Shown here: piece by piece, positions 1 through 13,363 of the stretch
Numbering within the stretch: position 1 is the first letter of the stretch
How the letters are laid out: every line of letters begins with the position of its first letter
Assembly (NCBI GenBank): GCA_965371515.1
Contig: CBDUYR010000062.1
Location: 1-13,363, forward strand
DNA: 13,363 nt
Direction of reading: 5' to 3'
From: an uncultured bacterium
GTDB taxonomy: Bacteria; Krumholzibacteriota; Krumholzibacteriia; Krumholzibacteriales; Krumholzibacteriaceae
Program-made: the position numbers and the translations under genes
The notes under the pieces: model-generated
What the model was told of the DNA's origin: nothing
The model's database searches: none
The model's input: only the letters and a program-made list of their open reading frames with translations

Positions 1-3
1 AAA

Positions 4-975
4 ATGGGTGAGTTCAAATTCGAGCAATTAACAGTTGGGATGTTGATCAAGCGTGAAGGCGGCATGTTCACGCCCAGCGGGCTGGGTGTATTCTATGACC
101 CGACTAAAAAGGGAGAAAAAACCAAATCTAAATCAGCTTATGGAGAATATGACGAGGAAACCATCTATGGTAAAAACAGCAGGGTCGGCGGCAAACATAA
201 ATATCCAAATGTCGACCCGATGACAGTGGCAGAGATATTTTTTGAAGCAATGAACGTAGCAGGCATTAAAGCCGAAAAGCCCGTTAAAAGGCCATTGAGG
301 TTAGAGCTTGAGGGCAATCTGGGTTATCTGGTGCGGTTCCCGACGGAAGACCTGGAGCGGGGGCGCTCAATATTTGAGTTTCTGTCGACTCTGTATTATA
401 ACCATCGGAATGTATTAACATCTTTTACCTATCTTGACAGGGCAAAGAAGAAGGATCTGGGCCAGGCTACGGTTGTAACTCTTGGACCTGATGTCAGGAC
501 ATTACACACAGAACGGTTCCAGCCGATTTACATCGGCGGCACTCAACTGCTGGACAATATAGAAGTTGATAAATCAACGCTCGCGCTCAATTTTTACGGC
601 GTGAAAAAACAGCGGCTAAAACAATTTGTGGACAATATTGAGTCCAAAACTACTATCTATTCCATGACTCTTGAAGATCTTCCGGCCGATCAAGTCGCAT
701 ACACACATTCCGTGATGTGGGACAACAAAGATCTGCCCAGAGGCTACCGGGCAAATTTAATCAGGAGGGGGCTGGTCGATTTTCAGGATAGAGATTCGGG
801 CAAACTGATCGCGTACAGTCTGTTCCCGATGGAAATGAAGACAAGGCTTGTTGAGTCGCTGGAATTATTTCAAAAAATGTCTTTTGAGCCGATCGGCCTG
901 CTGCAGAAATGCATAGAAGTAAATAAACTTATTAAACAGGTCGTGAAGGACGAATTTTCCGCCGATTTGATTTAG
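4..975 (+). CDS. Hypothetical protein (323 aa); the true start may lie upstream of the window
   Basis: Long ORF with no competing ORF, Lys-rich, visibly lower GC than the rest of the window. The frame is open from base 1 (AAA ATG). No family motif recognised. Confidence 0.75.
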   Translation: MGEFKFEQLTVGMLIKREGGMFTPSGLGVFYDPTKKGEKTKSKSAYGEYDEETIYGKNSRVGGKHKYPNVDPMTVAEIFFEAMNVAGIKAEKPVKRPLRLELEGNLGYLVRFPTEDLERGRSIFEFLSTLYYNHRNVLTSFTYLDRAKKKDLGQATVVTLGPDVRTLHTERFQPIYIGGTQLLDNIEVDKSTLALNFYGVKKQRLKQFVDNIESKTTIYSMTLEDLPADQVAYTHSVMWDNKDLPRGYRANLIRRGLVDFQDRDSGKLIAYSLFPMEMKTRLVESLELFQKMSFEPIGLLQKCIEVNKLIKQVVKDEFSADLI

Positions 976-1019
976 ACCACAAAGGTTTCTACGGATAGAA
1001 TTTTTCGGCAAGGAAAGTC

Positions 1020-2432
1020 ATCACGAAAATAATCAACCGATTATTCCGGTTTACCTGGTTTCCCCTGGCGTTTCAGCTGCTCACGCTGGGTGTGTTTATC
1101 CTCCTGATCGTCGGCGGCCTGGCCGCCAATACCAGTGATATGTCCTTTGCCATGGTGCTGCGCAACACAAACGCGGCAAACCTGATCGTCTGGTCCTACT
1201 GGTGGCCGATTATCATCCTGTCCGCGATATTTCTCGGCCGCGTCTGGTGCACGGTATGCCCCATGGAACTGGTCACATCGCTGGCTTCCAGGGTCGGGCT
1301 TAAACGGAAGCCGCCGGCTTTATTGCGTTCCGGCTGGGTGATGGCCATCTTCTATATCCTCATCCTGTTCGTCGGCATCCACATGCTGGCCATCCATCGC
1401 GTACCTTTTCGCATGGCGATCTACATGCTGATCCTGTTCGGTGCTGCCATCGTGTTCGGCCTTCTGTTCTCCCGCAACACTTTCTGCGCCCATGTCTGCC
1501 CGGTGGGTTACATGCTGGGGCTTTATGCGCGGCTCGCGCCTGTGGGTTGGGGCGTGAGCGACAAGTCTGTCTGCCTGGACTGCAAAGACCTGTCGTGCGT
1601 CTCGAAAAAGACCGCCTATGAATTCCAGGGGAGAAGCTGTGGTGTCGGGCTCAGGCCGTACGATCTTGATGACAATACCGATTGCCTCGTTTGCGGCCAG
1701 TGCCTGAAAGCCTGCGGCCGCAACAATCCGGGGCTCGACGGGCGGCCCAACCCGGGCTGGTTCCAGCGCGGATGGTTCAAGGATCTTGTGGAACTGAAGC
1801 CCATGACCGCCGCGCAGGCCTTGTTCTGTCTGGTCGTATCCGGTTTTGTCGTCTACGAGATCTTTACAGAATGGCCGGTGACGAAGGAGTTGCTGCTCCG
1901 GGCGCCGGCGATGCTGGAGCAGGCGCTCGGTGCGGGCGGCACATGGGGTGGCGGGATCGTGAGATCGATGACGCTGTTCGTGGCCCTGCCGGCGGTCTTC
2001 TGGATGCTGCCGTTTTTTACGTTCCGCCTGGCCGGCGGGAGGCTCTCGCTGAGCGACTATTCGCTCCGATTCGGCATCGCTTTCATTCCAGTCATGGCGG
2101 CCGCTCATATCGTGAAGTCGCTGTTGAAAATGACTTCGCGCATTCCTTATTGGGAATATGCCGCGGGCGATCCGGCCGGTATGGAAACTGCGCGCGGTAT
2201 CCTCGAGGAGACTGTACCGTTGGCACCGTTGCCCTTGTGGCTTGATCCTGCAATGACGTTTGTCAGCCTTGGGTTGATGGGCGCCGCTGTCGCGCTGAGT
2301 TTCCTGCTCGTATACAAGTTGATTACGGCTCACGCGGCCGAATCGGGATGGCGTTGTGTGCCACTCTACCTTATCCCGCTCCTCTACGGCGGAGCATTCA
2401 CTGCCATGCTGATTGCGTGGAGACTTTTCTGA
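1020..2432 (+). CDS. Polytopic membrane 4Fe-4S (ferredoxin-type) protein, NapH/MauN/RdxA-like
   Basis: Several hydrophobic helices and the Cys motifs GRVWCTVCP, FCAHVCPVG, CLDCKDLSC and the ferredoxin-type DCLVCGQCLKAC. The ORF track starts at GTG 1092, but the frame is open back to 999 and encodes the rest of TM1. A start at ATC 1020 is inferred from AAGGA at 1010-1014. Confidence 0.8.
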   Translation: MTKIINRLFRFTWFPLAFQLLTLGVFILLIVGGLAANTSDMSFAMVLRNTNAANLIVWSYWWPIIILSAIFLGRVWCTVCPMELVTSLASRVGLKRKPPALLRSGWVMAIFYILILFVGIHMLAIHRVPFRMAIYMLILFGAAIVFGLLFSRNTFCAHVCPVGYMLGLYARLAPVGWGVSDKSVCLDCKDLSCVSKKTAYEFQGRSCGVGLRPYDLDDNTDCLVCGQCLKACGRNNPGLDGRPNPGWFQRGWFKDLVELKPMTAAQALFCLVVSGFVVYEIFTEWPVTKELLLRAPAMLEQALGAGGTWGGGIVRSMTLFVALPAVFWMLPFFTFRLAGGRLSLSDYSLRFGIAFIPVMAAAHIVKSLLKMTSRIPYWEYAAGDPAGMETARGILEETVPLAPLPLWLDPAMTFVSLGLMGAAVALSFLLVYKLITAHAAESGWRCVPLYLIPLLYGGAFTAMLIAWRLF

Positions 2433-2508
2433 ATCACACGGGGTTGTCGCTTTGCGACCACACCAATAACCTGAATAATGGAGGCCCTTCTCAAGCGAGA
2501 GTTCAGAC

Positions 2509-3195
2509 ATGGGGTACTATTCTGAAAAGCTGGCAGGAAAACGTCTGCTGGAATGCTATGATATTGCTCCGGCGAGGGTTAAACAGTATTTAGAGGCTGA
2601 GATCCAATATGTGCTTTCCAGAACAAACCCGGAGGATTCAGTCCTGGATCTGGGATGCGGATATGGCAGGGTTGCGTGTGAGATCGCCGAGGTCGCGAAA
2701 CGTGTCGTTGGTATTGATACCGCCCCCGAAAGCCTCGAGCTTGCCAGATCTCGAATGAAAAGTGGAATGCCCTGTGAATTTCTCGAGATGGATGCAACCG
2801 CCCCTGGATTTGATGACGATGGATTCGATCTGGTCGTATGCATCCAGAATGGGATATGCGCATTCGGCGCGGATCCGTTTGTCCTGATCAAAGAAGCGAT
2901 ACGGGTCGCACGCCCGGGGGGTTCTGTTCTGTTCTCCAGCTACTCGAGCAAATTCTGGGACCACAGGCTGGAATGGTTTGAGCTTCAGGCGGAACGCGGA
3001 TTGCTCGGTGAGATCGATTACGATACAACCGGTAACGGCGTGATCGTGTGTAAGGACGGATTCCGCTCGGGAGCAATGGGGGAGGTGGAATTCAGGGAAT
3101 TGTGCGGCCGGATCGAACTGGAGCCCAATATTGTTGAAGTGGACGAGTCGAGCATATTTTATGAATTAGTCAAGCCCTGTGATGCCGTTTTATAA
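2509..3195 (+). CDS. Class I SAM-dependent methyltransferase
   Basis: Motif I VLDLGCGYG, acidic end of beta2 (VVGID), FDLVVC (motif II) and RVARPGG (motif III). Confidence 0.9.
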   Translation: MGYYSEKLAGKRLLECYDIAPARVKQYLEAEIQYVLSRTNPEDSVLDLGCGYGRVACEIAEVAKRVVGIDTAPESLELARSRMKSGMPCEFLEMDATAPGFDDDGFDLVVCIQNGICAFGADPFVLIKEAIRVARPGGSVLFSSYSSKFWDHRLEWFELQAERGLLGEIDYDTTGNGVIVCKDGFRSGAMGEVEFRELCGRIELEPNIVEVDESSIFYELVKPCDAVL

Positions 3196-3237
3196 TCCCC
3201 GTATATATCCATGCTCATACAGATCTGTCGCGTCAGC

Positions 3238-4173
3238 CTACACTTCAATCAGCGTGTAGTTGTAGCCCGCCTCGAAACCGGCGCCGCCGTCGAGGTATCT
3301 CTTTATAAACTGACCGCAGTTCGAGCCGATGTGGTTCTCCTCGAGCTCACCTATCGAGACGAGGACTTCGTAACCCGCTTCACGCAGGGGCGCGGTGACG
3401 CTCTCCGGCTCGATCCCTCCGATTATCGACGACCTGACCCCGCTGCGGTCCGCTTCGCATGTCGGGTTGACCGGCGTCAGCTTGACGAGGAACTTCTCCG
3501 GGTCGAAATGACTGAAGAGAATAGCCGCGTCGAGAGGCATCCCCTCGGCCAGGGCGAAGTTCAGCGTGATCTTCCGGCATCCATCGATGAAGAAGTCCTC
3601 GCCGTAACGGGCGATCTCCCCGAAATCCCATTTCTTTGGAGGCATGAGCCAGTCGCGCCTCCCGGTGTCTGTAGTATGGAGTGAGAACTGGAGCTGGAAA
3701 CGCCCCTTGTATATATTCCTGCCGATATCGAGCAGCCTGTCGAAGAACGCTTCCCTCCCCGCCGGGGCTATGGTCGACAGGGCAGGCATCAGTCCCGGGG
3801 CTTCGTATCGCGAGGGGAGTTCCTCGAGGACATCGAGGACCGCATCGTTCAGCGCCGGCTCGCCCATTCTGGCGAGCTGCACCTTGAACTTCGCCGCCGG
3901 CACGCGGCGATCGGGGTACCTGCGCTCGATCATGTAATCTGTCTGAAAGAGGATCTCGTCCTCGGAGAGTTTCCCACCGTATGAGCCGCCCGCATCGCAG
4001 AAGCGGCAGCCGCCAGGGCACCCGAAGAGGGTCGAGACGATCAGCACCCACTTCTCTTCGCGCGGCAGCGGCGGCTCGACCGACTCGACGAACTCGACAT
4101 GCCGGCCTCCCTCCGCTTCAGCTATATATACCTTCGCGATCTCGTCGCTACCCGTCCAGGCCCTTACCTTCAT
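3238..4173 (-). CDS. RlmN/Cfr-like (class A) radical SAM protein with no N-terminal domain and no resolving Cys
   Basis: CxxxCxxC (CPGGCRFC), ARMGEP (RlmN MGMGEP), QFSLH (RlmN AISLH), KLTPVNP and C-terminal IGSNCGQ (RlmN IDAACGQ). ATG 4173 is preceded by GGAGATAT, so it is preferred over 4200. Confidence 0.85.
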   Translation of the reverse strand: MKVRAWTGSDEIAKVYIAEAEGGRHVEFVESVEPPLPREEKWVLIVSTLFGCPGGCRFCDAGGSYGGKLSEDEILFQTDYMIERRYPDRRVPAAKFKVQLARMGEPALNDAVLDVLEELPSRYEAPGLMPALSTIAPAGREAFFDRLLDIGRNIYKGRFQLQFSLHTTDTGRRDWLMPPKKWDFGEIARYGEDFFIDGCRKITLNFALAEGMPLDAAILFSHFDPEKFLVKLTPVNPTCEADRSGVRSSIIGGIEPESVTAPLREAGYEVLVSIGELEENHIGSNCGQFIKRYLDGGAGFEAGYNYTLIEV

Positions 4174-5047
4174 ATATCTCCATTGCAGCGCGGACGCCAT
4201 CCCCGACGGCTATCGCTGTCTGCCTGTACATGCCGTTCATCACGTCCCCGGCGAACCGGAGCTTCCCTTCGTCTGCCAGATCGTCGATCATCTCCGTCAG
4301 GCCGGACAGCAGCGCGATCTCCCGCGACACCCTGCCGATTGCGGCAATAACATGATCCGCAGTCATCCTGTCAAGTGAGCCGCACCCTCCGCCGCGAAGC
4401 GCAAGGGCGAAGCGGCCTTCGTCCTCTCTCGATATTTTCTCGACCGACGCGTTCTCCAGCACTGTAACGCGCTCGCTCCCCGAGATTCGCCTCAAGAGCG
4501 CGGCGTTGCAGCGCGGTTTCTCTCCCCGCTGCATGATCACGACATCGTTTTTTTTCGACAGGGTCAGTGCATAATCGAAGGCCGCATCCCCCGCGCCGAT
4601 GATTGCCACCGACTTACCCGTGATATTTCTTATCTCACCGATCCCGTAGTCTATTCCATCCTCCGTCTGCGGGTCGTCGAACTCAACGCCGTCGAGCGGA
4701 ACGGGCCTCGTGCCAGTCGCAATGATCAGCCTCGAAAAATCGGCCCCTGTTTCGGCCTGCACCCTGAAGACGCCCGCCGCATAATCAACGGCGAGGACCT
4801 CCTCGGGGCAGACGACCGCCTCGCTCGCAGCAAGACCGGCGGCGAAGAGGGCCGCCAGCTCGGGCCCTGCTATTCCCTTCGGAAAGCCGGGATAGTTCTC
4901 GACGGTCCCGGCATTGTAGAGAAGACCGCCCGGTGTGTCCGCTTCGTATACGAACGGGTATATCTCGTACCGCGCCAGCTGCAGGGCGGCCGCTATGCCG
5001 GCCGGACCGGCGCCGATTACAGCGGTGTCGCTCTTTTTCATTTCCAT
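4148..5047 (-). CDS. Thioredoxin-reductase-fold FAD/NAD(P)H oxidoreductase lacking the redox CxxC
   Basis: IGAGPAG (FAD binding), VENYPGF, IIATG, second dinucleotide motif IIGAGDAA, AIG and FAGDV..RQTAIAVGDG. Start is ATG 5047 (GGAG 5 nt upstream) or ATG 5041 (ATGA overlap with the upstream stop). Confidence 0.88.
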   Translation of the reverse strand: MEMKKSDTAVIGAGPAGIAAALQLARYEIYPFVYEADTPGGLLYNAGTVENYPGFPKGIAGPELAALFAAGLAASEAVVCPEEVLAVDYAAGVFRVQAETGADFSRLIIATGTRPVPLDGVEFDDPQTEDGIDYGIGEIRNITGKSVAIIGAGDAAFDYALTLSKKNDVVIMQRGEKPRCNAALLRRISGSERVTVLENASVEKISREDEGRFALALRGGGCGSLDRMTADHVIAAIGRVSREIALLSGLTEMIDDLADEGKLRFAGDVMNGMYRQTAIAVGDGVRAAMEIYEGKGLDG

Positions 5048-5706
5048 TTCGTCTCCATCGTAGCGATCAGGCCTGAGCATATGGTAACAGCCGCCGCACC
5101 GTGCGAAAGATTGAGCAGCGAGGCTGCGTGGAATTCCCTGTTATATGTGGCCGTCCCGTCGGCCGGGACGAACACTGCGAATCCCCTGACAAACGCCGAC
5201 CGCGCCGTCGCCTCGACGCAGAGGTGAGTCATCACGCCCGTGACTACGACCTGTTCCGTGCCGGAATCCCGGAGGAGATCCTCCAATGCGGTCTCATAGA
5301 ATGCATCGTACTGCGTCTTGTCCACAACAGCGGTCGAGAGATCCTCGAGGGTCGGCTCGAGTGCCGCCTCGTCGCTCGCGGGCTCGAGGAGATCGTCCCA
5401 CCAGACCCCCATCATGCCGGAATCCTCAGGCGTGTTTGAATGGCGGGTCATCAGCACCGGGCGCCCCGCCTCCCTGAACACCCGGGCCAGTTCGCGCAGG
5501 GCCGGTACTATCGCCTGCGCGTCGGGCACGGTGGCGTGAGAATCCTCGTCGAGGAAGAAGGCCTGCATGTCGAGGATCAGCAGCGCCGCACGGGATATAT
5601 CGAACGCAGGGCCGCGTGCCGCCGCCTCGGGGATCAGCCTTCGGGCATTCTCCTCTATATCGCCTGGGGTGAGATACTTATGCTTCAACTCGCTCGAACG
5701 CTCCAT
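5038..5706 (-). CDS. Isochorismatase-family cysteine hydrolase (amidase-like)
   Basis: Catalytic triad motifs ALLILDMQ (Asp), DKTQYDAF (Lys) and GVMTHLCVEATAR (Cys). Starts 1 nt after the MttB stop. Confidence 0.9.
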   Translation of the reverse strand: MERSSELKHKYLTPGDIEENARRLIPEAAARGPAFDISRAALLILDMQAFFLDEDSHATVPDAQAIVPALRELARVFREAGRPVLMTRHSNTPEDSGMMGVWWDDLLEPASDEAALEPTLEDLSTAVVDKTQYDAFYETALEDLLRDSGTEQVVVTGVMTHLCVEATARSAFVRGFAVFVPADGTATYNREFHAASLLNLSHGAAAVTICSGLIATMETKWK

Positions 5707-5707
5707 A

Positions 5708-7159
5708 TCAGACGGGCAGCTTCTCGAGGCCGTACCGCTTCGCCTCGGCCTCCATCAGCCCGGTCAAGTGCTTGACGACGGCCGGGTCGAGCGCTTCGGG
5801 CTCATGGCTCGACAGGAGTTTCTCGACCCTCTCGCGCGCCCTCTGCGACGCGTCCTTCTTCCCTTTGGACCGCCACTCTTCGAGCGTGCCTCTTTCAATG
5901 ACGGGATCGGGGAAATACGCCTCCTTGCGGAACCACTTCGTCGTGTGGGGCAGCGAGAGAAACTCCTTCTTCTCGAGACCCTGCTTGATAAGCGGCATGG
6001 CGATCGGATCGTCGCGCAGTTCTATGCCCTCGGTGAGCCTCAGGGTCATCCCGCAGATCTCGTGGTCGAGGACGAGCTTCTCGAGCGACTGGCACGACTC
6101 GAAGTCGAGCATTCCCGGGCCCGAGATGTTGTTTATGCCCGAGACGGCTGCAACGATCGCTCCCATCGCTGTCTCCATGCCGGCCTGGTAGTCGACCGGC
6201 TTTGCGTCGCTAAGCGCCATGTAGGCCTGTGTCGGGACTCCGAGGTGCTTGCCTATCTCGGCGTAGGCGCCGTCTATCATCATCGTCTCGATAGCGCCCA
6301 TCGGGGTCGTCCCCTTGCGCATGTCGAAGCATGCCGGAGAGCCGCCGTAAATTATCGGCGAGCCTGCGCGGGCAAGCTGGTGTATCGTGATACCGCTGAG
6401 GCTCTCCGCGCAGTGCTGCGTGACCGCTCCTGCCAGCGTAACGGGTGATGTCGCCCCTGTAAGCGGCATCGAGATGAGCTCGGCGGGAAGCCCCGTATGT
6501 GCGCAGTCGATCAGAGCCTGGCAGGTCAGGTCGCTCCACATCAGCGGGGGCGAGGGGCAGCAGTCGAATATCGCAATCGGCTTCTCCATCAGAGTGTCGG
6601 CGCCGCCCGAGACGGTCGCGAGCATCTCGTGCATCACCTTGAACGCCTCGACCTTGAAAGTGCCCGTAACGATCGGCTTGACCGAGTTCTGCAGACCGAG
6701 GAAGACCCTGTACCTGTCGGCGATCTCCTCGGGCACATCGCCGGGGATGAGACCCGTACTCTGCGCCGCGTAGTTCGGGAGGGCGTCGGTGAGACGCGCG
6801 TACTTTATCACATCGGCCGTGACCGGCGGCCTCGCATCGTTGATCTCGGGATCGAATATCCGCAGAGCCGCGGAGCCGGGATTGAAGTGGATCCTGTCCT
6901 CGCCGAGGTCCATCGCGACCTCGCCGTGGCGGTCGTAGACGAGTATTCTCGAGGGTGCAGTCTCGAGCGCCTTCTCGACGACCGGCGAAGGTATCATCAC
7001 CCGGCCGCCCTCGACCCTGGCGCCCGCGCCTGTCAGCAACTCTATCGCCTCGTCGTTCTCGACGAAGACGCCGACCTTTTCGAGTATCTCCATCGCCTCG
7101 GCGATGATCTTCTTTCTCGTCGTCTCGTCGAACCAGGTAACGCGCGGGGTCATGCCCAT
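5708..7159 (-). CDS. mttB: Trimethylamine methyltransferase (MttB) family protein, non-pyrrolysine type
   Basis: Family motifs ILEKVGV, CPSPPLMW, TGATSPVTLAG, QLARAGSPIIYGG, FDMRKG, SDAKPVDYQAGME, GMLD and SLEKLVLD. RBS AAGGAG at 7173-7168. No in-frame TAG. Confidence 0.92.
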   Translation of the reverse strand: MGMTPRVTWFDETTRKKIIAEAMEILEKVGVFVENDEAIELLTGAGARVEGGRVMIPSPVVEKALETAPSRILVYDRHGEVAMDLGEDRIHFNPGSAALRIFDPEINDARPPVTADVIKYARLTDALPNYAAQSTGLIPGDVPEEIADRYRVFLGLQNSVKPIVTGTFKVEAFKVMHEMLATVSGGADTLMEKPIAIFDCCPSPPLMWSDLTCQALIDCAHTGLPAELISMPLTGATSPVTLAGAVTQHCAESLSGITIHQLARAGSPIIYGGSPACFDMRKGTTPMGAIETMMIDGAYAEIGKHLGVPTQAYMALSDAKPVDYQAGMETAMGAIVAAVSGINNISGPGMLDFESCQSLEKLVLDHEICGMTLRLTEGIELRDDPIAMPLIKQGLEKKEFLSLPHTTKWFRKEAYFPDPVIERGTLEEWRSKGKKDASQRARERVEKLLSSHEPEALDPAVVKHLTGLMEAEAKRYGLEKLPV

Positions 7160-7189
7160 CTCGCATGCTCCTTCCGTTTCGTCGCTTTT

Positions 7190-7849
7190 CTATTCTATAA
7201 GCCTGTACGGACAGGTCTCCATGTCGCAGTTCCTGCAGGAGCTCTCGCTGCGGAGCCTGACCGGGTCTTCCGCTATGTGCACGGCGAACGATACCGATTT
7301 GCGCGGGACCATCATGCTGCTCTCCGTGAGCGTCACGCCGATCCTGCCCGCCGGGACGAGCGCAAAGAGCGCTTTCTGCTCCTTCACATCCCAGTCACCA
7401 TATCCGGGGCTGGCCCTGCACGAGGTCTTCAGCCCCTCCGCCGCCGCGTCCTCGTCAATACGGTCGTTCGCGTAGCGGGCTGTCGCCTCTGCCGCCGCCG
7501 AGCCTATCGCGTCGAGCACTACGGCGGCGAGCATGTCCCCGTCCTTCGACAACGCCGTCACCCTCTCCTCGAGGGCCGGCCCTATCGTGCAGACGCAGAA
7601 GGCTACCTTCTCGAGTTCGGTGAACATCTCGGAGCCGGGCAGGTCGCCCCCTGCCGCGGTCACGCAGATCGCCTTCGGCACTATCAGGCCCTTCGACTCC
7701 TCGAGCGCCGCATCGAGCGCTTCGGAGATCTTTCCCGCCGCCGCAGCGGCGGGCGCCCCTATCCCCTCGCCGTTCTTCCTGCCGAGAAGCCTCGACAACT
7801 CGCCGCTGTCGGGCTCGATGTCGAATCCCTCGAGGATCACAGGTTCCAT
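7190..7849 (-). CDS. Stand-alone B12-dependent methionine synthase reactivation (AdoMet-binding) domain protein
   Basis: FCVCTIG, LDAIGSAAAE, RASPGYGDW, Q..LF and IGVTLTESSMMVPRKSVS match the MetH C-terminal activation domain. C-terminal CxxCxxxxC. Confidence 0.88.
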   Translation of the reverse strand: MEPVILEGFDIEPDSGELSRLLGRKNGEGIGAPAAAAAGKISEALDAALEESKGLIVPKAICVTAAGGDLPGSEMFTELEKVAFCVCTIGPALEERVTALSKDGDMLAAVVLDAIGSAAAEATARYANDRIDEDAAAEGLKTSCRASPGYGDWDVKEQKALFALVPAGRIGVTLTESSMMVPRKSVSFAVHIAEDPVRLRSESSCRNCDMETCPYRLIE

Positions 7850-7859
7850 CTGCCGGTTC

Positions 7860-8756
7860 TCACATCCTGTCGAGGCGGGCCCTTATGACCCTTGTGAAAT
7901 CTGGCGTTGTGCCGCAGCATCCGCCGACGGCGTTCGCCCCCGCTTCTACCATCTTCATCAGGTCGTCGGCAAATTCCCCTGGGTCCTGCCTGTAGATCGC
8001 ATTCCCGTCGGCCAGTTCGGGCTGGCCCGCATTCGGCTGGAAGAGAAGGGGCGTGTCGGTCAGGGAACGCATCTCGCCGACAAGACCTATCATCTCGCCG
8101 CTCGTCAAACTGCAGTTCGCGCCTATTACGGCCACTCCCTCGGCAACGAGGATCTCCGCCGCCTTTTCAGGCGAATCGCCCATTATAGTGAAATATCCCT
8201 TTTTCTTTTTCTCCATCGTCAGTTCGCAGACTATCGGTTTGTCGGAGACCTCGCGGACGGCGCGAATCGCCTCGACAGCCTCCCTGATATCATACATCGT
8301 CTCGAGGAGAAAGATGTCGACGCCGCCCTTTTCAAGGGCCGCTGCCTGCTCCCGGAAGGCCTTCCTGGCCGCATCGGTGGAAAGAGTCCCCATCGGAGGG
8401 AAAAACTCCCCCGTAGGCCCGATGTCGCCGGCGAGAAACCTGCCTCCGACGATGAAGTCGTCGATTGCCTGCCTCGCTATTTCCGCCGCCTTGATGTTCA
8501 GCGCCGCCATGTCGGGAGCCCCGTCCCGGCATGATGCGGCGAGCTTGATCGAGGTCGCGCCAAAGGTGTTTGTCTGAATGACATCGGCGCCCGTCTCGAG
8601 GTACTTCGTGTGTATGCCGATGATCGTATCGGGGCGCTTGATGCTCCACTCGTCGGGCACCTCTCCCTCGGCGAGCCCGGCCGCTATGAGCATACTGCCC
8701 ATGCCGCCGTCGAAGAGAAGAACCCTTTCGCGCAATGCGTCGAGAAATTCGTTCAT
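7860..8756 (-). CDS. Homocysteine S-methyltransferase domain protein (MetH N-terminal/BHMT-like, Zn)
   Basis: LFDGGMGS, GADVIQTNTFGA, AGDIGPTG, LLETM, QPNAG, and Zn ligands GANC and GGCCGTTP. RBS GAGG upstream. Confidence 0.93.
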   Translation of the reverse strand: MNEFLDALRERVLLFDGGMGSMLIAAGLAEGEVPDEWSIKRPDTIIGIHTKYLETGADVIQTNTFGATSIKLAASCRDGAPDMAALNIKAAEIARQAIDDFIVGGRFLAGDIGPTGEFFPPMGTLSTDAARKAFREQAAALEKGGVDIFLLETMYDIREAVEAIRAVREVSDKPIVCELTMEKKKKGYFTIMGDSPEKAAEILVAEGVAVIGANCSLTSGEMIGLVGEMRSLTDTPLLFQPNAGQPELADGNAIYRQDPGEFADDLMKMVEAGANAVGGCCGTTPDFTRVIRARLDRM

Positions 8757-8775
8757 ATCCCCTCAGGTCCTTTCT

Positions 8776-9417
8776 TCAGCCGGCCTTTCCCTTTGCCAGC
8801 GCTACCGCCGCGACCGCGTCGCCGGCGTAACCGTCGGCCCCGATCTCCGAGGCCCACTCTTCGCTGCAGGGAGCCCCGCCGACCATCACCCTCACGTTGC
8901 CGCGAAGCGACTTTGCCTCGAGCTGCTCTATGACCTTCTTCTGTCCCGGCATCGTCGTGGTGAGCAGTGCCGATATGGCGATCCAGTCTGCGCCCTTCTC
9001 CTCGGCCGTTTCGACGAACTTCGCCACGGGGACATCGGCTCCGAGGTCGGTGACCTCGAACCCGTTTGCCGCGAGCATCGTCGCAACGAGCGTCTTACCG
9101 ATATCGTGGATATCGCCCTCTATCGTCCCGATGACGACATGGCCGAGCCTGTCCTGTTCGCCTTTGCCGCCCTCGAGGGCGGGCCGAAGGATGTCCATCG
9201 CTTTCTTCATAGCGTCGGCGCCGATGACAAGCTCGGGGAGGAAGAGCTCTCCCTCTTCCCATAGCCTGCCGACCTCGCGTATCCCAGCAACGAAGCCGTT
9301 GTCGACCACCTCGAGTACGGGCATCCCTTTCTCGAGAGTCAGTTTCGCGAGCTCCTCGGACCTTTCGGCGTCGCCGTCGATGATTGCCTGCCTGCAGCTG
9401 TCCAGGTGTTCCTTCAT
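8776..9417 (-). CDS. Corrinoid (B12-binding) methyl-carrier protein, MttC/MtbC/MetH cap plus B12 domain
   Basis: Cap domain (G..EVGRLWEEGELFLPEL), DxHxxG motif (GDIHDIGK), DLGADV, SALLTTT, VMVGGA and GADGY. RBS GGAGG at 9431-9427. Confidence 0.93.
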   Translation of the reverse strand: MKEHLDSCRQAIIDGDAERSEELAKLTLEKGMPVLEVVDNGFVAGIREVGRLWEEGELFLPELVIGADAMKKAMDILRPALEGGKGEQDRLGHVVIGTIEGDIHDIGKTLVATMLAANGFEVTDLGADVPVAKFVETAEEKGADWIAISALLTTTMPGQKKVIEQLEAKSLRGNVRVMVGGAPCSEEWASEIGADGYAGDAVAAVALAKGKAG

Positions 9418-9503
9418 CCGGGATCCTCCGTCCTTGTTTTCTTTATGCCCGGCGCCTTAGCCGGGGTCACGCTATAGATATCAGGTATGTGAGCAGATTG
9501 TGG

Positions 9504-9534
9504 AGTATATCAGACTCGGCGCCCGGGGATGCAA
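9504..9534 (-). promoter_or_regulatory. Candidate sigma70 promoter for the corrinoid/MttB operon
   Basis: On the minus strand, TTGCAT (9534-9529), a 19-nt spacer, then TATACT (9509-9504) with an extended -10 TG (TGaTATACT). The spacer is longer than optimal. Confidence 0.4.
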
Positions 9535-9587
9535 ATATATTATGGCGCCTGTAAGGAATATCGATTGTCAGGTTTGTCGTAAGGAGA

Positions 9588-11456
9588 TCAATCCCCAGGG
9601 CCGACTGTCCTGAGGATCGTACCGGAATAACCGACCGCGGTCATTATGTCTCCGCCAATGCACAAAGCTCCCCTGAGACCGAATTTCACCGGGGTGTACT
9701 GCTCCTCCCAAGTCTCCCCACCGTCTCTCGTTTCAAGAATCGTCCCGTTCTCTCCGACGATTATACCCGTATTCGCATCGGCGAATGAGACGGAATAAAG
9801 GTGCTCACTTGTACCGCTCGGCCAGAAGAACCATCTGTCGCCGCCGTCGGTCGTCCGATAGATGATACCGCCTCCGCCCACGGCAAAGCCCGTATTCTCG
9901 CTTGTAAGCGAGACGCCATAAAAGGTCGTTCTCGTGCCAGTCGGTGTTTTCTCCCAGGTTTCTCCTCCATCGGTCGTCTTGACGATCGTGCCGTAATATC
10001 CTGCCGCAATCCCGGTATCGGCATCGAGGAAGCTTACGCCATATAGGTTCCATGTCGTTCCGCTCTCCTGTACCGCCCATGTCTCTCCACCGTCGGTTGT
10101 CCGAAGGATCGTGCCGTATTCACCCACGGCCGTGCCAATATATTCGTTTATGAATGTCACGTCATGAAGGGTATAGAACCCGCTCCAGGCCTCCGACTGT
10201 ACGGTCCAGCTGTCACCGCCATCGGTCGTCCTGAAAATAATACCCCAGCCGCCGACGACCGTGCCGATATTCGCATCGACAAACGATACTCCATATAAAG
10301 TCATAAGATCCGGATTCGCTGTTTCTGTCGACTTCTCCACCCAGGTCTCACCGCCGTCTCCCGTTCTGAGTACGGTCCCGTTCAAGCCTACGGCTGTCCC
10401 GGTATTGGCGTCGGTGAAAGATACATCCTCGAGATGCATTCTGCTTCCCCTGGAAATCAGCTCCCATGTGTTTCCTCCGTCTTCCGTGCGGACGATCTCC
10501 CCTTCATCGCCCACCGCTATTCCCAGGTTGCTGCCGAAGAACGACAGCGCCTGCAGACGTCTGTCCGTCCCGCTGATCCTTGTCTCCCACGTTTCCCCGC
10601 CGTCCTCTGTGCGGACGATTGCGCCGAGCGCACCCACAGACACCGCCGTGGTCTCATTAATGAGGGACACGCTGTAGCAAAAGGGCTCGCCGCCAGACAC
10701 AACCGTCCACGTGTTACCACCATCGGCCGTCCGATGAATCTTGCCGTACCAGTCTGTAACCATTCCGTTATCTGGATCGAGCAGCGAAACGCTGCTGAGG
10801 CTGGCATGAGGCGGCATGCCCTGCCCGACCCAGGTGGCGCCTCCGTTTTTTGTCCGGAGAATCGTTCCGTCAAGACCGATAACTGTGCCGTTGTCAGAAT
10901 CGCAGAACGATACTCCGGTGAGATATTCGTCGCAGATGTTCCGCCTGATCCAGTTTTTCCCTCCGTCCGTTGTTTGCAGGACGGCTCCATAATCACACAC
11001 GACTGTGCCGATATCGGGATGGGCAAAGCTGACTCCACGATAATAATCATCCTTGGCGCTATTCTGTTTTACCCAGGTCTCGCCGCCGTTCTCTGTCCTC
11101 AGTATCACATTTGCACCAACTACTGTCCCGATTTCGAAATCAGCGAACGAAACACTGTTGAGAGTCGCATCTGTCCCGCTGTCCTGCACTTCCCATGTAG
11201 CACCTCCATCGGTCGTCCTGATGATCGTCCCGAATGCTCCTACCGCAGTAGCGGTCACCGCGTCGGCCACGCAGATGCCACGCAGTTCCTGTCCCTGCGG
11301 TACGGGGTTCTGGATGAACCACACGGAAGAAACCGGATCATCCTCAACGGGCGTAACGGGATTGTCGTCTGAGCATGAGATGAACTGAAAGGCGGCGGCA
11401 AAGAGTATCGATAGGGCAATGGTGGTGGGTCTGGAACGAAGAATGCGGATCATCAT
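9588..11456 (-). CDS. YCF48/BNR (Asp-box) repeat beta-propeller lipoprotein
   Basis: Signal peptide with lipobox FISC. 13 complete I(L)RTxDGGxTW Asp-box repeats about 42 aa apart plus a truncated 14th. RBS AAGGAGGAG just upstream. Confidence 0.9.
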   Translation of the reverse strand: MMIRILRSRPTTIALSILFAAAFQFISCSDDNPVTPVEDDPVSSVWFIQNPVPQGQELRGICVADAVTATAVGAFGTIIRTTDGGATWEVQDSGTDATLNSVSFADFEIGTVVGANVILRTENGGETWVKQNSAKDDYYRGVSFAHPDIGTVVCDYGAVLQTTDGGKNWIRRNICDEYLTGVSFCDSDNGTVIGLDGTILRTKNGGATWVGQGMPPHASLSSVSLLDPDNGMVTDWYGKIHRTADGGNTWTVVSGGEPFCYSVSLINETTAVSVGALGAIVRTEDGGETWETRISGTDRRLQALSFFGSNLGIAVGDEGEIVRTEDGGNTWELISRGSRMHLEDVSFTDANTGTAVGLNGTVLRTGDGGETWVEKSTETANPDLMTLYGVSFVDANIGTVVGGWGIIFRTTDGGDSWTVQSEAWSGFYTLHDVTFINEYIGTAVGEYGTILRTTDGGETWAVQESGTTWNLYGVSFLDADTGIAAGYYGTIVKTTDGGETWEKTPTGTRTTFYGVSLTSENTGFAVGGGGIIYRTTDGGDRWFFWPSGTSEHLYSVSFADANTGIIVGENGTILETRDGGETWEEQYTPVKFGLRGALCIGGDIMTAVGYSGTILRTVGPGD

Positions 11457-11566
11457 CTCCTCCTTGAAAACCCTGCATTAAATATATTGATCCGGCACCG
11501 GCTTCAAAACAATTAATCCTGATTTATTTGTAATCGTTCTTTGTGGCGCGGAAAGAAGGCGGGGAT

Positions 11567-11607
11567 AAAAAGGGAAAGCCCGGGGCATATACTCACTCCG
11601 GGCTCCC
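11567..11607 (-). terminator. Rho-independent terminator downstream of the M49 peptidase gene
   Basis: Minus strand GGGAGCCCGG-(loop)-CCGGGCUUUC forms a 10-bp stem (two G-U pairs), followed by CCUUUUUAU. Confidence 0.65.
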
Positions 11608-11623
11608 AGCGACGAAACTGTAG

Positions 11624-11710
11624 GGGGTGCGGCCGGGCACCCCGGTAATCTCCTCAGAAAACCTTACCCCCTTGAAGGCCGACCAGACTCTTCGGAGGTG
11701 GCGCCCGGCC
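11624..11710 (-). other. Unclassified GC-rich structured element with alternative hairpins
   Basis: 11-bp stem 11710-11700/11641-11631 (GGCCGGGCGCC/GGUGCCCGGCC) and an overlapping perfect 7-bp hairpin 11643-11637/11630-11624 (GGGGUGC/GCACCCC). Confidence 0.45.
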
Positions 11711-11715
11711 AATAA

Positions 11716-13363
11716 TCAGTTCGCCGCAAACTTTTTCTCTATCTCGAACGCGGGCACGATGTCGACGGGCAGGCGCGCCTTTCTGAGCTTGAGCAGCGAT
11801 GCCTCCACGTCGGCGTCCATCTTTCCATACTTATCAAGAAGGCCCTTCGCCGCTTCGTAGTCGCCGAGGGCCTGGATCATCAGGATTTTCGCGGAGAGAT
11901 CCTTCACGGCGCCACGTGTCCCTTCCATGTCGACGGACCATCGGCCGCTCTTCGTGTCGAAGGAGTAGACACCCTTCTCTCTCATGTAGTTGAAGATGAC
12001 CATGTTCGCCCTTCCGTGCGCAGACTCGGCGCCGAAGCGGACGGAGCGGAAGAAACCGGCGAGAAATGTGACCGCTACGTCCTTTTCGAGCTCGCGGCCG
12101 AAAAATCCCTCATCAATAAGATAATAAATGTTGTGCTCGCCCACAATGTCTGCTTTCGCTTCCTCGACAGACGAGTGGGCCTCCTTCAGCGCCTTCTGCG
12201 CGGTAGTCTCCGTTCCGTCGGCGAGGGTTATCCTGCCCGGCCCGAGGCCGTGGGAAAACTCGTGCAGCAGGATGTGGTTGTAGTAGGCGTCGAAGGTCAC
12301 GTGCTTCAGCTGGTCCTCGGCGATGAGCAGCTCGGCTATCGGCTTGAGGATCTTGTCGAACTTGGCGTGGATGATGTTGCGGAGCATGACCTTCTTGCTC
12401 CCCTTTGCCTCATGCACTCTCTCGTCGTTGGGCAGGTTGAAGGCGAGCGTCTGGACGCCGGCCTTCGTATCGCCGGCCGAGAAGACCACGTCGACGACCG
12501 AGATCGGTGACTCCGTGCCGCGCTCGAGGTTCTTGTGCTCGTCCGGGATGGGGAGATTATTCTCCATCTTCACGAGATACCCCTTCAGCCCGTCGAGACG
12601 TACGCTTTCCTTCGGGTCACGGATGCATACGAAGGCCTCGAATGCGGCCTTGTAGTTGAAGAGGTTGTCCTCGTAGACCTCGTACGGGCCGATGGTGACA
12701 TCGATCAGGTTATCGGTAACGTCCATCCAGTCCATATCGCTCTGAAAGTAATCGTTAGAGCCGAAGGCGGCGGCTCGGGAGCTCAGGAACTTCGCCAGCG
12801 ACTCATTCGAGGTCAGGTCGGCCGCACGGCGCAGATACCCCGCCGCTTCATCGAGAAGTTTCTTGTACTCTTTCGAGTAGGGAATCGCTATGAGCTCGCC
12901 CGCTTTCTCTCCCCGCCTTATCACGGTGAACGTTCCCTCGAACGCCTCGCGGTCGACGGGACGCTTCGCGATCCATTCTTCGAACTCCTGCTTCGTCATG
13001 TCGGTCGGATAGAACTCCGCGCCGTCGGGCTTTATCAGTTTCGAGATGAACGGCTCGTTCTCGTTGATCCGGTCCCAGGGGCCGAAATTGATCTTGAAGA
13101 ATTTGAGCTCTTTCATCATGCCCTTGCTGATCATGGCTTTACGCAACTCGACGTTGCCCTTCCAGACCTGCCTGAGAAAGATCTCGTCCATGACGACGGC
13201 CGCTCTGTAGATATTCTCCAGCGCTGCGGTCTCGTTCTTGTCGAGAAGCTCCCAGGGCACCGGGATCTTCACCGGCGCGTAGACGGCGAGCCTCGCCTCG
13301 ATCGGCTTGTCGCTCTGTGCGGACACGGTATCTCCTCCCCCGGCGATGACGAGCAGGCAGGCG
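11716..13363 (-). CDS. Peptidase family M49 (dipeptidyl-peptidase III-like, HEXXH type); probably secreted and 5'-truncated by the window
   Basis: IGPYEVYED, AFNLPNDE, GSKKVML, HEFSH zinc motif, EEAKAD and FRSVRFG..SAHG. The frame stays open past GTG 13326 to the window end and encodes ACLLVIAGGGDTVSA, which resembles the end of a signal peptide. Confidence 0.9.
   Translation of the reverse strand, partial: ACLLVIAGGGDTVSAQSDKPIEARLAVYAPVKIPVPWELLDKNETAALENIYRAAVVMDEIFLRQVWKGNVELRKAMISKGMMKELKFFKINFGPWDRINENEPFISKLIKPDGAEFYPTDMTKQEFEEWIAKRPVDREAFEGTFTVIRRGEKAGELIAIPYSKEYKKLLDEAAGYLRRAADLTSNESLAKFLSSRAAAFGSNDYFQSDMDWMDVTDNLIDVTIGPYEVYEDNLFNYKAAFEAFVCIRDPKESVRLDGLKGYLVKMENNLPIPDEHKNLERGTESPISVVDVVFSAGDTKAGVQTLAFNLPNDERVHEAKGSKKVMLRNIIHAKFDKILKPIAELLIAEDQLKHVTFDAYYNHILLHEFSHGLGPGRITLADGTETTAQKALKEAHSSVEEAKADIVGEHNIYYLIDEGFFGRELEKDVAVTFLAGFFRSVRFGAESAHGRANMVIFNYMREKGVYSFDTKSGRWSVDMEGTRGAVKDLSAKILMIQALGDYEAAKGLLDKYGKMDADVEASLLKLRKARLPVDIVPAFEIEKKFAAN

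Follow-up and report, generated by a model that had tools for sequence, protein, structure and literature searches.

A run of seven co-oriented genes in an uncultured bacterium of the family Krumholzibacteriaceae (phylum Krumholzibacteriota; assembly GCA_965371515.1, contig CBDUYR010000062.1) occupies positions 3238-9417 of the minus strand of the 13,363-nucleotide stretch analysed here, which we refer to as the window. The original prediction took these genes for a single, self-contained pathway of methyl-group handling. Here we report that they are two modules and not one pathway: a four-gene B12-dependent set in which an MttB-family methyltransferase is encoded with a split methionine synthase (module A), and a three-gene cassette of an RlmN-like radical S-adenosylmethionine (SAM) enzyme, a TrxB-like flavoprotein and an isochorismatase-family cysteine hydrolase (module B, or the trio). 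The reading that we consider fairly probable is that the operon is a lineage-specific join, in which the B12 set would methylate homocysteine with a methyl group taken from some cationic N-methyl compound, and the cassette would use SAM radical chemistry to add a single carbon to a small, anionic metabolite. The cassette is uncharacterised, separate from module A and widespread in bacteria and archaea.

The division into modules is carried by gene neighbourhoods in other genomes. When species genomes were searched with the radical SAM protein as query, 67 loci were recovered, which span many bacterial phyla together with Thermoplasmata and Heimdallarchaeota; the best 80 of 561 loci from a metagenome set were also considered. 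Without restriction, the flavoprotein accompanies the radical SAM gene at 59 of the 67 loci, the hydrolase at 46 and the MttB module at 5. When the counts are confined to loci with enough upstream flank, the flavoprotein gene lies beside the radical SAM gene at 56/58 genome loci and 51/54 metagenome loci, and the hydrolase gene is near it at 44/54 and 32/43, respectively. MttB is found near the cassette at 5/51 genome loci and 1/38 metagenome loci, and in the only metagenome case (L118) it is divergent, with other genes in between. Furthermore, no MTTB family member was found in 35 of 50 cassette genomes sampled outside the phylum (61 were first tried; completeness of metagenome-assembled genomes, MAGs, not stated), and 15 have one.

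Within the phylum, the radical SAM gene occurs in 42 of 201 sampled genomes and MttB in 84. Both modules are present in 39 of these, adjacent in 22, which belong to one order and two families, and not adjacent in 17; the separation is confirmed by flanking sequence in 10 of the 17, and in the other 7 the modules lie on different contigs. At 20 MttB loci deliberately picked from genomes or loci without the join, the corrinoid and homocysteine S-methyltransferase (Hcy-MT) genes accompany MttB in 20/20 and the activation domain in 19/20, and the trio is present in 0/20. The seven-gene linkage is conserved within one order; outside it the trio travels without MttB, which is the outcome that the original prediction had named as its refutation. 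The members of the trio are also found fused to one another in all three pairings: flavoprotein with radical SAM enzyme (P0125, P0131, P0151), radical SAM enzyme with hydrolase (P0153, P0156, P0164, P0168, P0180) and hydrolase with flavoprotein (L064, L067). A fourth conserved partner of the cassette was sought and rejected, since no recurrent one emerged from a Pfam scan of 110 of 218 dereplicated neighbour open reading frames (ORFs) or from ORF clustering.

Several observations weigh against so clean a division. Genomes from two families of the order retain the join even where MttB identity has fallen to 48-54%, and L118 is a second, divergent juxtaposition of the modules; given both, a functional tie between modules A and B may be conceivable. 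The trio itself is not uniform, in that the hydrolase is missing beside the other two genes at L091, L096-L099 and L109, and its catalytic cysteine is lost in four of the five fusions to the radical SAM enzyme (P0156, P0164, P0168 and P0180, all of which keep the C-terminal cysteine of the radical SAM domain). The hydrolase is the least constant member of the trio.

The wider distribution of the cassette includes some unusual settings. At L160:655-8567, and likewise at L121, L139, L164 and L189, the trio stands in a second neighbourhood of one-carbon/folate type, with neighbours whose sequences look like those of MetV-MetF, a formate/nitrite transporter and two CooC-like ATPases. At L028:6330-9826 the flavoprotein and radical SAM genes, without the hydrolase, lie between the two dihydroorotate dehydrogenase subunit genes, and at L053, L057 and L059 genes for MeaB and a glyoxalase-family protein (a probable methylmalonyl-CoA epimerase) are found within about 5 kb of the trio. 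For the radical SAM protein, 209 clusters at E<=1e-30 were recovered from the full library, a more distant clade described below among them, and matches in the ESM Atlas are to unnamed radical SAM clusters only. No relative was confirmed in viral contigs searched with a sister-clade protein, and comparison of the trio with PADLOC gave a 22-residue Rossmann match and nothing meaningful, so that an anti-phage defence system was rejected.

The radical SAM enzyme (3238-4173; 311 amino acids) is RlmN-like. Its AlphaFold2 model (pLDDT 91.6) has RlmN as best structural match (Foldseek E 2e-13; Z 27.2 with a root-mean-square deviation of 2.7 A over 267 residues, to residues 80-362 of RlmN 5hr6), and RlmN and Cfr are the closest folds, with Z of 27 vs 15 for the rest. 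In common with RlmN/Cfr (TIGR00048, TIGR04432; PDB 3rfa, 5hr6, 6fz6, 9p0p) it has the fold, the CxxxCxxC motif (C52/C56/C59, present in 66/66 relatives), an MGEP motif, an E105-like glutamate and the methyl-carrier cysteine: C286 aligns to the cysteine of AACGQ, the equivalent of RlmN C355, and is kept in 66/67 relatives. In contrast, identity to these enzymes is about 20-22%, the family match is weak (33 bits to TIGR00048 vs a cut-off of 290), the model begins at RlmN residue 80 so that the N-terminal domain is missing, and the resolving cysteine equivalent to RlmN C118 is I45. At that position the relatives have isoleucine in 36, asparagine in 14, leucine in 10, valine in 3, cysteine in 2 and methionine in 1, that is, cysteine in 2/66. 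I45 and C286 were mapped by alignment to the genome's own RlmN-like protein, a canonical copy with both cysteines, and replacement of RlmN by the cassette enzyme was rejected on the presence of that copy.

Both missing features have reported or hypothesised roles in RlmN and Cfr. In RlmN, C355 carries the methyl group and C118 deprotonates the adduct (PMC13266988), and the N-terminal domain has been hypothesised to bind RNA, mutations in it reducing the activity of Cfr (PMC2836569). PDB titles likewise record the RlmN C118A variant caught as a cross-link to RNA. The active site of the cassette enzyme is remodelled and is polar and basic: K41, K97, R102, Q160, Q162, R200, N205, K231, T233 and E279 are invariant or near-invariant in 67 relatives, and K41, K97, R102, R200 and K231 among them suggest an anionic substrate. 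Because the methyl-carrier cysteine is kept while the resolving cysteine and N-terminal domain are absent, the enzyme probably starts the reaction as RlmN does but cannot finish it in the same way, and one-carbon transfer to a small anionic molecule is likely. By its predicted mechanism it belongs with the class A radical SAM methyl synthases, yet it falls outside RlmN/Cfr for want of two of their defining features; unlike them, it also has flavoprotein and hydrolase partners, to which it is sometimes fused. Relatives commonly carry the mistaken annotation of 23S rRNA methyltransferase. In a more distant RlmN-like clade (P0204, P0228, P0236) the resolving cysteine is likewise missing; all three proteins carry a fused QueT-like transporter domain, and two of them a nucleosidase-family (PNP_UDP_1) domain as well.

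The flavoprotein (4148-5047; 299 amino acids; PF07992, Pyr_redox_2) has conserved FAD and NAD(P) Rossmann motifs (G12/G14/G17 and G151/G153/A156), and alignment to thioredoxin reductases shows that the position of the CxxC is replaced; no conserved cysteine was found among 60 family members. Its best NCBIfam match is TRX_reduct, at 127 bits vs a cut-off of 343. It resembles other TrxB-like flavoproteins without CxxC, which share the thioredoxin reductase fold and the FAD and NAD(P) motifs and have no redox disulfide. We take these to be ferredoxin/flavodoxin-NADP reductases of the YumC type. The window protein differs in that its sequence is nearer to true thioredoxin reductases than to the ferredoxin-NADP reductases in the PDB, and in that no ferredoxin or flavodoxin gene recurs alongside it in the neighbour scans.

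The hydrolase (5038-5706; 222 amino acids; PF00857) has the triad D46/K130/C163, invariant in 46-47 relatives, which it shares with the isochorismatase-family cysteine amidases (NicF/Ami, RutB, BiuH, CSHase). By fold, amidases and PhzD/EntB-type enzymes are tied (Z 26-28), and the two groups together, the chorismate-type hydrolases EntB, VibB and PhzD included, span Z 25-28; EntB and VibB are the best sequence matches but have glycine at the position of C163. Every NCBIfam equivalog scores below its cut-off. The family assignments of the original prediction hold for all seven genes (B12-binding, S-methyl_trans, Met_synt_B12, MTTB, Isochorismatase, Pyr_redox_2 and a weak RlmN/Cfr), and its descriptions of a CxxC-less flavoreductase and a non-canonical RlmN-like radical SAM enzyme are borne out by the alignments above.

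As a gene cluster, module A has been described before. It comprises the corrinoid protein (8776-9417; 213 amino acids; PF02310/PF02607, TIGR02370 above cut-off, DxHxxG motif at residue 102), an Hcy-MT domain (7860-8756; 298 amino acids; PF02574, E 1e-65, with GANC and GGCCG motifs that are presumably zinc ligands), a MetH-type AdoMet reactivation domain (7190-7849; 219 amino acids; PF02965, Met_synt_B12, with an RxxxGY motif) and a non-pyrrolysine MttB-family methyltransferase (5708-7159; 483 amino acids; PF06253). The MttB ORF has no in-frame amber codon; in alignments to 9yce and 7xcl a Leu/Ser region falls at the pyrrolysine site of 7xcl, and the score to the pyrrolysine MttB family TIGR02369 is 385 bits vs a cut-off of 525. 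The same four genes, encoding a non-pyrrolysine MttB, Hcy-MT, corrinoid protein and activation domain, have been described in Ca. Electryoneota and diverse bacteria, where it was hypothesised that they make methionine with a methyl group from a donor yet to be named (Williams et al., 2022; PMC9324843). In the accessible part of that paper the trio goes unmentioned, and neither 'isochorismatase' nor 'Krumholz' has a match in its supplements. That MttB feeds the split methionine synthase, as originally predicted, is probable and is an idea in print for the four-gene cluster.

It is less clear that module A stands alone. In Ruegeria an MttB-family system and a split methionine synthase use one corrinoid protein (Mausz et al., 2025; PMC12478193), and in the systems treated there, MtgBCDE of Ruegeria pomeroyi and the split MetH of Phaeobacter inhibens, one corrinoid protein is common to an MttB-family enzyme, a split methionine synthase and a pterin-binding methyltransferase. 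The genome of the window has all such modules, but the pterin module is on another contig. In a folate-independent core methionine synthase system the corrinoid would have no pterin-binding module available to it, and on this the picture is mixed: none lies inside the operon, but a stand-alone pterin-binding methyltransferase (L069) and a 611-amino-acid Hcy-MT/MetF fusion are encoded elsewhere in the same genome. Module A is for this reason probably a shared B12 hub of a fully split system, which runs counter to the self-contained pathway originally proposed. As to the donor, Y97, R312, H348 and F356, named as the glycine-betaine-binding residues of MtgB (PMC13080624), correspond to S96, Q311, S346 and E354 (HMMER alignment, with a numbering offset of 2 derived in the analysis), so that the window MttB has none of the four. 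S96 is invariant among 31 orthologue matches and E354 is found in 21/31; the acidic E354 in place of F356 suggests a cationic donor without a carboxylate.

A model for the operon can be outlined on this basis. From what is known of its families, MttB would methylate a Co(I) corrinoid, Hcy-MT would make methionine from it, and the AdoMet domain would reactivate corrinoid in the Co(II) state. Through the pterin-binding methyltransferase encoded outside the operon, methyl groups would also be able to pass between this corrinoid and folate. In module B, a first molecule of SAM would methylate C286, and a second would yield the 5'-deoxyadenosyl radical, giving a C286-S-CH2 radical that would add to an sp2 carbon. 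In place of the C118 base, a different active-site base or the partner proteins would resolve the adduct. Electrons from NAD(P)H would reach the cluster or the product by way of the flavoprotein, and an amide or thioester bond would be cut by the cysteine hydrolase, either ahead of the radical step or following it. Common regulation of the supply of methyl groups, SAM and folate would best explain the join, and the leading candidate for the product of the cassette is para-aminobenzoate (pABA) for folate, although we think this candidate doubtful.

A lineage-specific join has to be weighed against readings that give the seven genes, or the trio, another purpose. The original prediction had the amidase release an N-methyl compound for MttB, with the resulting SAM feeding the radical SAM enzyme; sarcosine from N-carbamoylsarcosine and trigonelline from N-methylnicotinamide exemplify such a step. 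Tight packing, the 22 joins among the 39 genomes with both modules, the juxtaposition in L118 and the occurrence of N-carbamoylsarcosine amidase among the fold relatives of the hydrolase all speak for it. However, the trio travels without MttB at 46/51 genome loci and 37/38 metagenome loci, as well as in the 35 of 50 genomes noted above, the hydrolase is fused to its trio partners, and the MttB module is without a hydrolase at all 20 loci picked for absence of the join; we therefore consider a single seven-gene pathway quite improbable. The flavoprotein could instead account for the join if it also donated electrons for corrinoid reactivation with the AdoMet domain. Reactivation of the AdoMet type requires a reductant, no RACo/RamA activator was found in the window's genome, which is 99.6% complete, and the join is conserved in the order. 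Against this, MttB modules with the AdoMet domain lack a nearby flavoprotein at 19/20 loci, and other organisms have flavoprotein and radical SAM enzyme in one fused protein, so that we give this explanation very little credence.

For the trio alone, the closeness of RlmN and Cfr in fold makes RNA an obvious substrate to consider: the radical SAM protein might modify C2 or C8 in tRNA or rRNA, in a non-methyl or cross-link-resolved reaction, with the flavoprotein as reductant and the hydrolase completing the product, and its basic invariant residues could bind RNA phosphates. The domain hypothesised to bind RNA is missing, though, as is the resolving cysteine; a canonical RlmN-like gene is present in the same genome, and no RNA-related neighbour recurs in the neighbour scans. 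Such a role is unlikely. A role in making or remodelling a cobamide lower ligand such as 2-methyladenine is the most improbable of the alternatives. B12-related neighbours do occur in several lineages, namely MttB in the window, MeaB in loci of the L053 type and, by our presumptive labels, MetVF and CooC-like proteins in L160, and B12-binding domains are present in 48/51 cassette genomes; but CobT is present in only 6/51 and was not found in the window's genome, and 12/14 control genomes carry B12-binding domains as well.

The lineage-specific join leaves room for a tentative proposal about the product of the cassette, namely that in sediment bacteria and archaea it provides an oxygen-independent, PabAB- and chorismate-independent route to pABA for folate. 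A carbon from SAM would be attached to an aromatic or pre-aromatic precursor by the one-cysteine RlmN relative, by way of a Cys-S-CH2 adduct that the flavoprotein and the cysteine hydrolase would then process and release; the chemistry to pABA is speculative, and we judge the proposal rather improbable. Its basis is the distribution of PabB. No clear PabB was found in the 42 cassette genomes of the phylum or the 50 outside it (0/92 in total, with one ambiguous case), 14 of which keep TrpE. The window's genome encodes FolP, FolB and FolK, and in it no chorismate-binding enzyme, PabB or chorismate synthase (AroC) was found. Across the phylum a PF00425 match is present in 1/42 cassette genomes vs 126/159 others, with at least two matches in 89 of the 126 by hand count; the pair was typed in one genome only (G013), as TrpE and PabB. 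G025 and G076, the only cassette genomes in the PabB/TrpE-rich families f6 and f4, have AroC and no PF00425 match. Outside the phylum, dihydropteroate synthase (DHPS) is found in 47/50 cassette genomes and PF00425 matches in 13/50. Of the 17 PF00425 matches in cassette genomes, 14 are TrpE (one typed solely by its trpG/trpD neighbours) and 2 are MenF; the last is ambiguous and divergent, a chorismate-binding protein at L205:2847-4448 (G233) that has a glutamine amidotransferase neighbour and scores far below the TrpE and PabB cut-offs. Chorismate synthase is present in 29/58 cassette genomes, so that the absence of PabB cannot be put down entirely to a lost shikimate pathway.

Other results count against a pABA route. 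DHPS is present in 191/201 phylum genomes and is thus non-discriminating; the near-complete genomes G035, G068, G088, G019 and G063 have neither the cassette nor a PF00425 match; and in the class of G205, PabB is found in 42/301 genomes and the cassette in 1/301 (seven candidates were scored per genome, and misses are possible), a frequency too low for that class to be informative as an independent-clade test of the exclusion. Related genomes in these sets are not independent, and MAGs are incomplete. The exclusion between cassette and PabB runs in one direction only; an alternative pABA route would account for it, and so would an anaerobic, scavenging way of life common to these organisms. 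Other folate-related replacements were considered and set aside: that of thymidylate synthase, with ThyX or ThyA in 5/5 cassette genomes; that of dihydrofolate reductase (DHFR) as a general role, with DHFR in 2/5; and that of FolB/FolK, present in 3/5 and 4/5, respectively. The window's genome itself has a tandem-domain ThyX (G000:C77:172-1434) and a DHPS with a long N-terminal extension (C28:14942-15667), and DHFR was looked for there and not found, leaving the dihydrofolate reductant unexplained.

The layout of the operon is as originally described. ORF calls on the window confirm the tight packing, in that the first four intergenic gaps in gene order measure 19, 10, 30 and 1 nt and the last two junctions overlap, by 10 nt (5038-5047) and by 26 nt (4148-4173), and the codon third-position GC content (GC3) of the seven genes is even, at 0.73-0.85. 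Relatives retain the gene order, so the packing is not due to chance; the closest named relatives are Krumholzibacteriota MAGs, at 88-89% identity. From the spacing a single transcript is likely. No minus-strand terminator-like site was detected in 2300-9700, and each of the three such sites that were detected is a plus-strand one. Neither a promoter-like site upstream of 9417 nor an Rfam element at 9300-11800 was found. The class I methyltransferase gene at 2509-3195, which had been placed in the pathway, lies on the plus strand, convergent to the operon, with a GC3 of 0.56. A close homologue is near the operon in 1/67 loci and 0/40 phylum loci, and the gene is outside the unit and not linked to it. 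The single case (L024, about 740-1410, in a Krumholzibacteriota genome) is a 64%-identical homologue upstream of the corrinoid gene and co-oriented with it.

The surroundings of the operon contain further genes. Downstream, a plus-strand tail (window 1-3195) encodes a 323-amino-acid ORF of 45% GC without a Pfam or NCBIfam match, a NapH-like polyferredoxin membrane protein and the class I methyltransferase; none of these genes was found downstream in the close relatives L001-L004, and the region looks variable. On the other side, a gene for an M49 (dipeptidyl peptidase III-like) peptidase is at 11716-13326. In many genomes of the order it is just upstream of the corrinoid gene, from which it is separated in the window by a gene for a YCF48-like repeat protein (9588-11456).

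In the literature searched, which mostly did not extend to subscription papers, neither the trio nor a route to pABA by radical SAM chemistry was found described. The seven-gene join is itself the less important part of the finding, being a clade-specific arrangement, and module A is small enough to be of use in identifying the methyl donor for an MttB clade that is still uncharacterised. The class A radical SAM methyl synthases considered here, RlmN and Cfr, use two cysteines and have RNA as substrate; if our reading is right, a widespread one-cysteine relative tied to a flavoprotein and a cysteine hydrolase would extend class A chemistry to small molecules and would imply another way of releasing the Cys-CH2 adduct. 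If the pABA lead were also to prove true, the cassette would fill a gap in folate synthesis in anaerobes and archaea that have DHPS and lack PabB.

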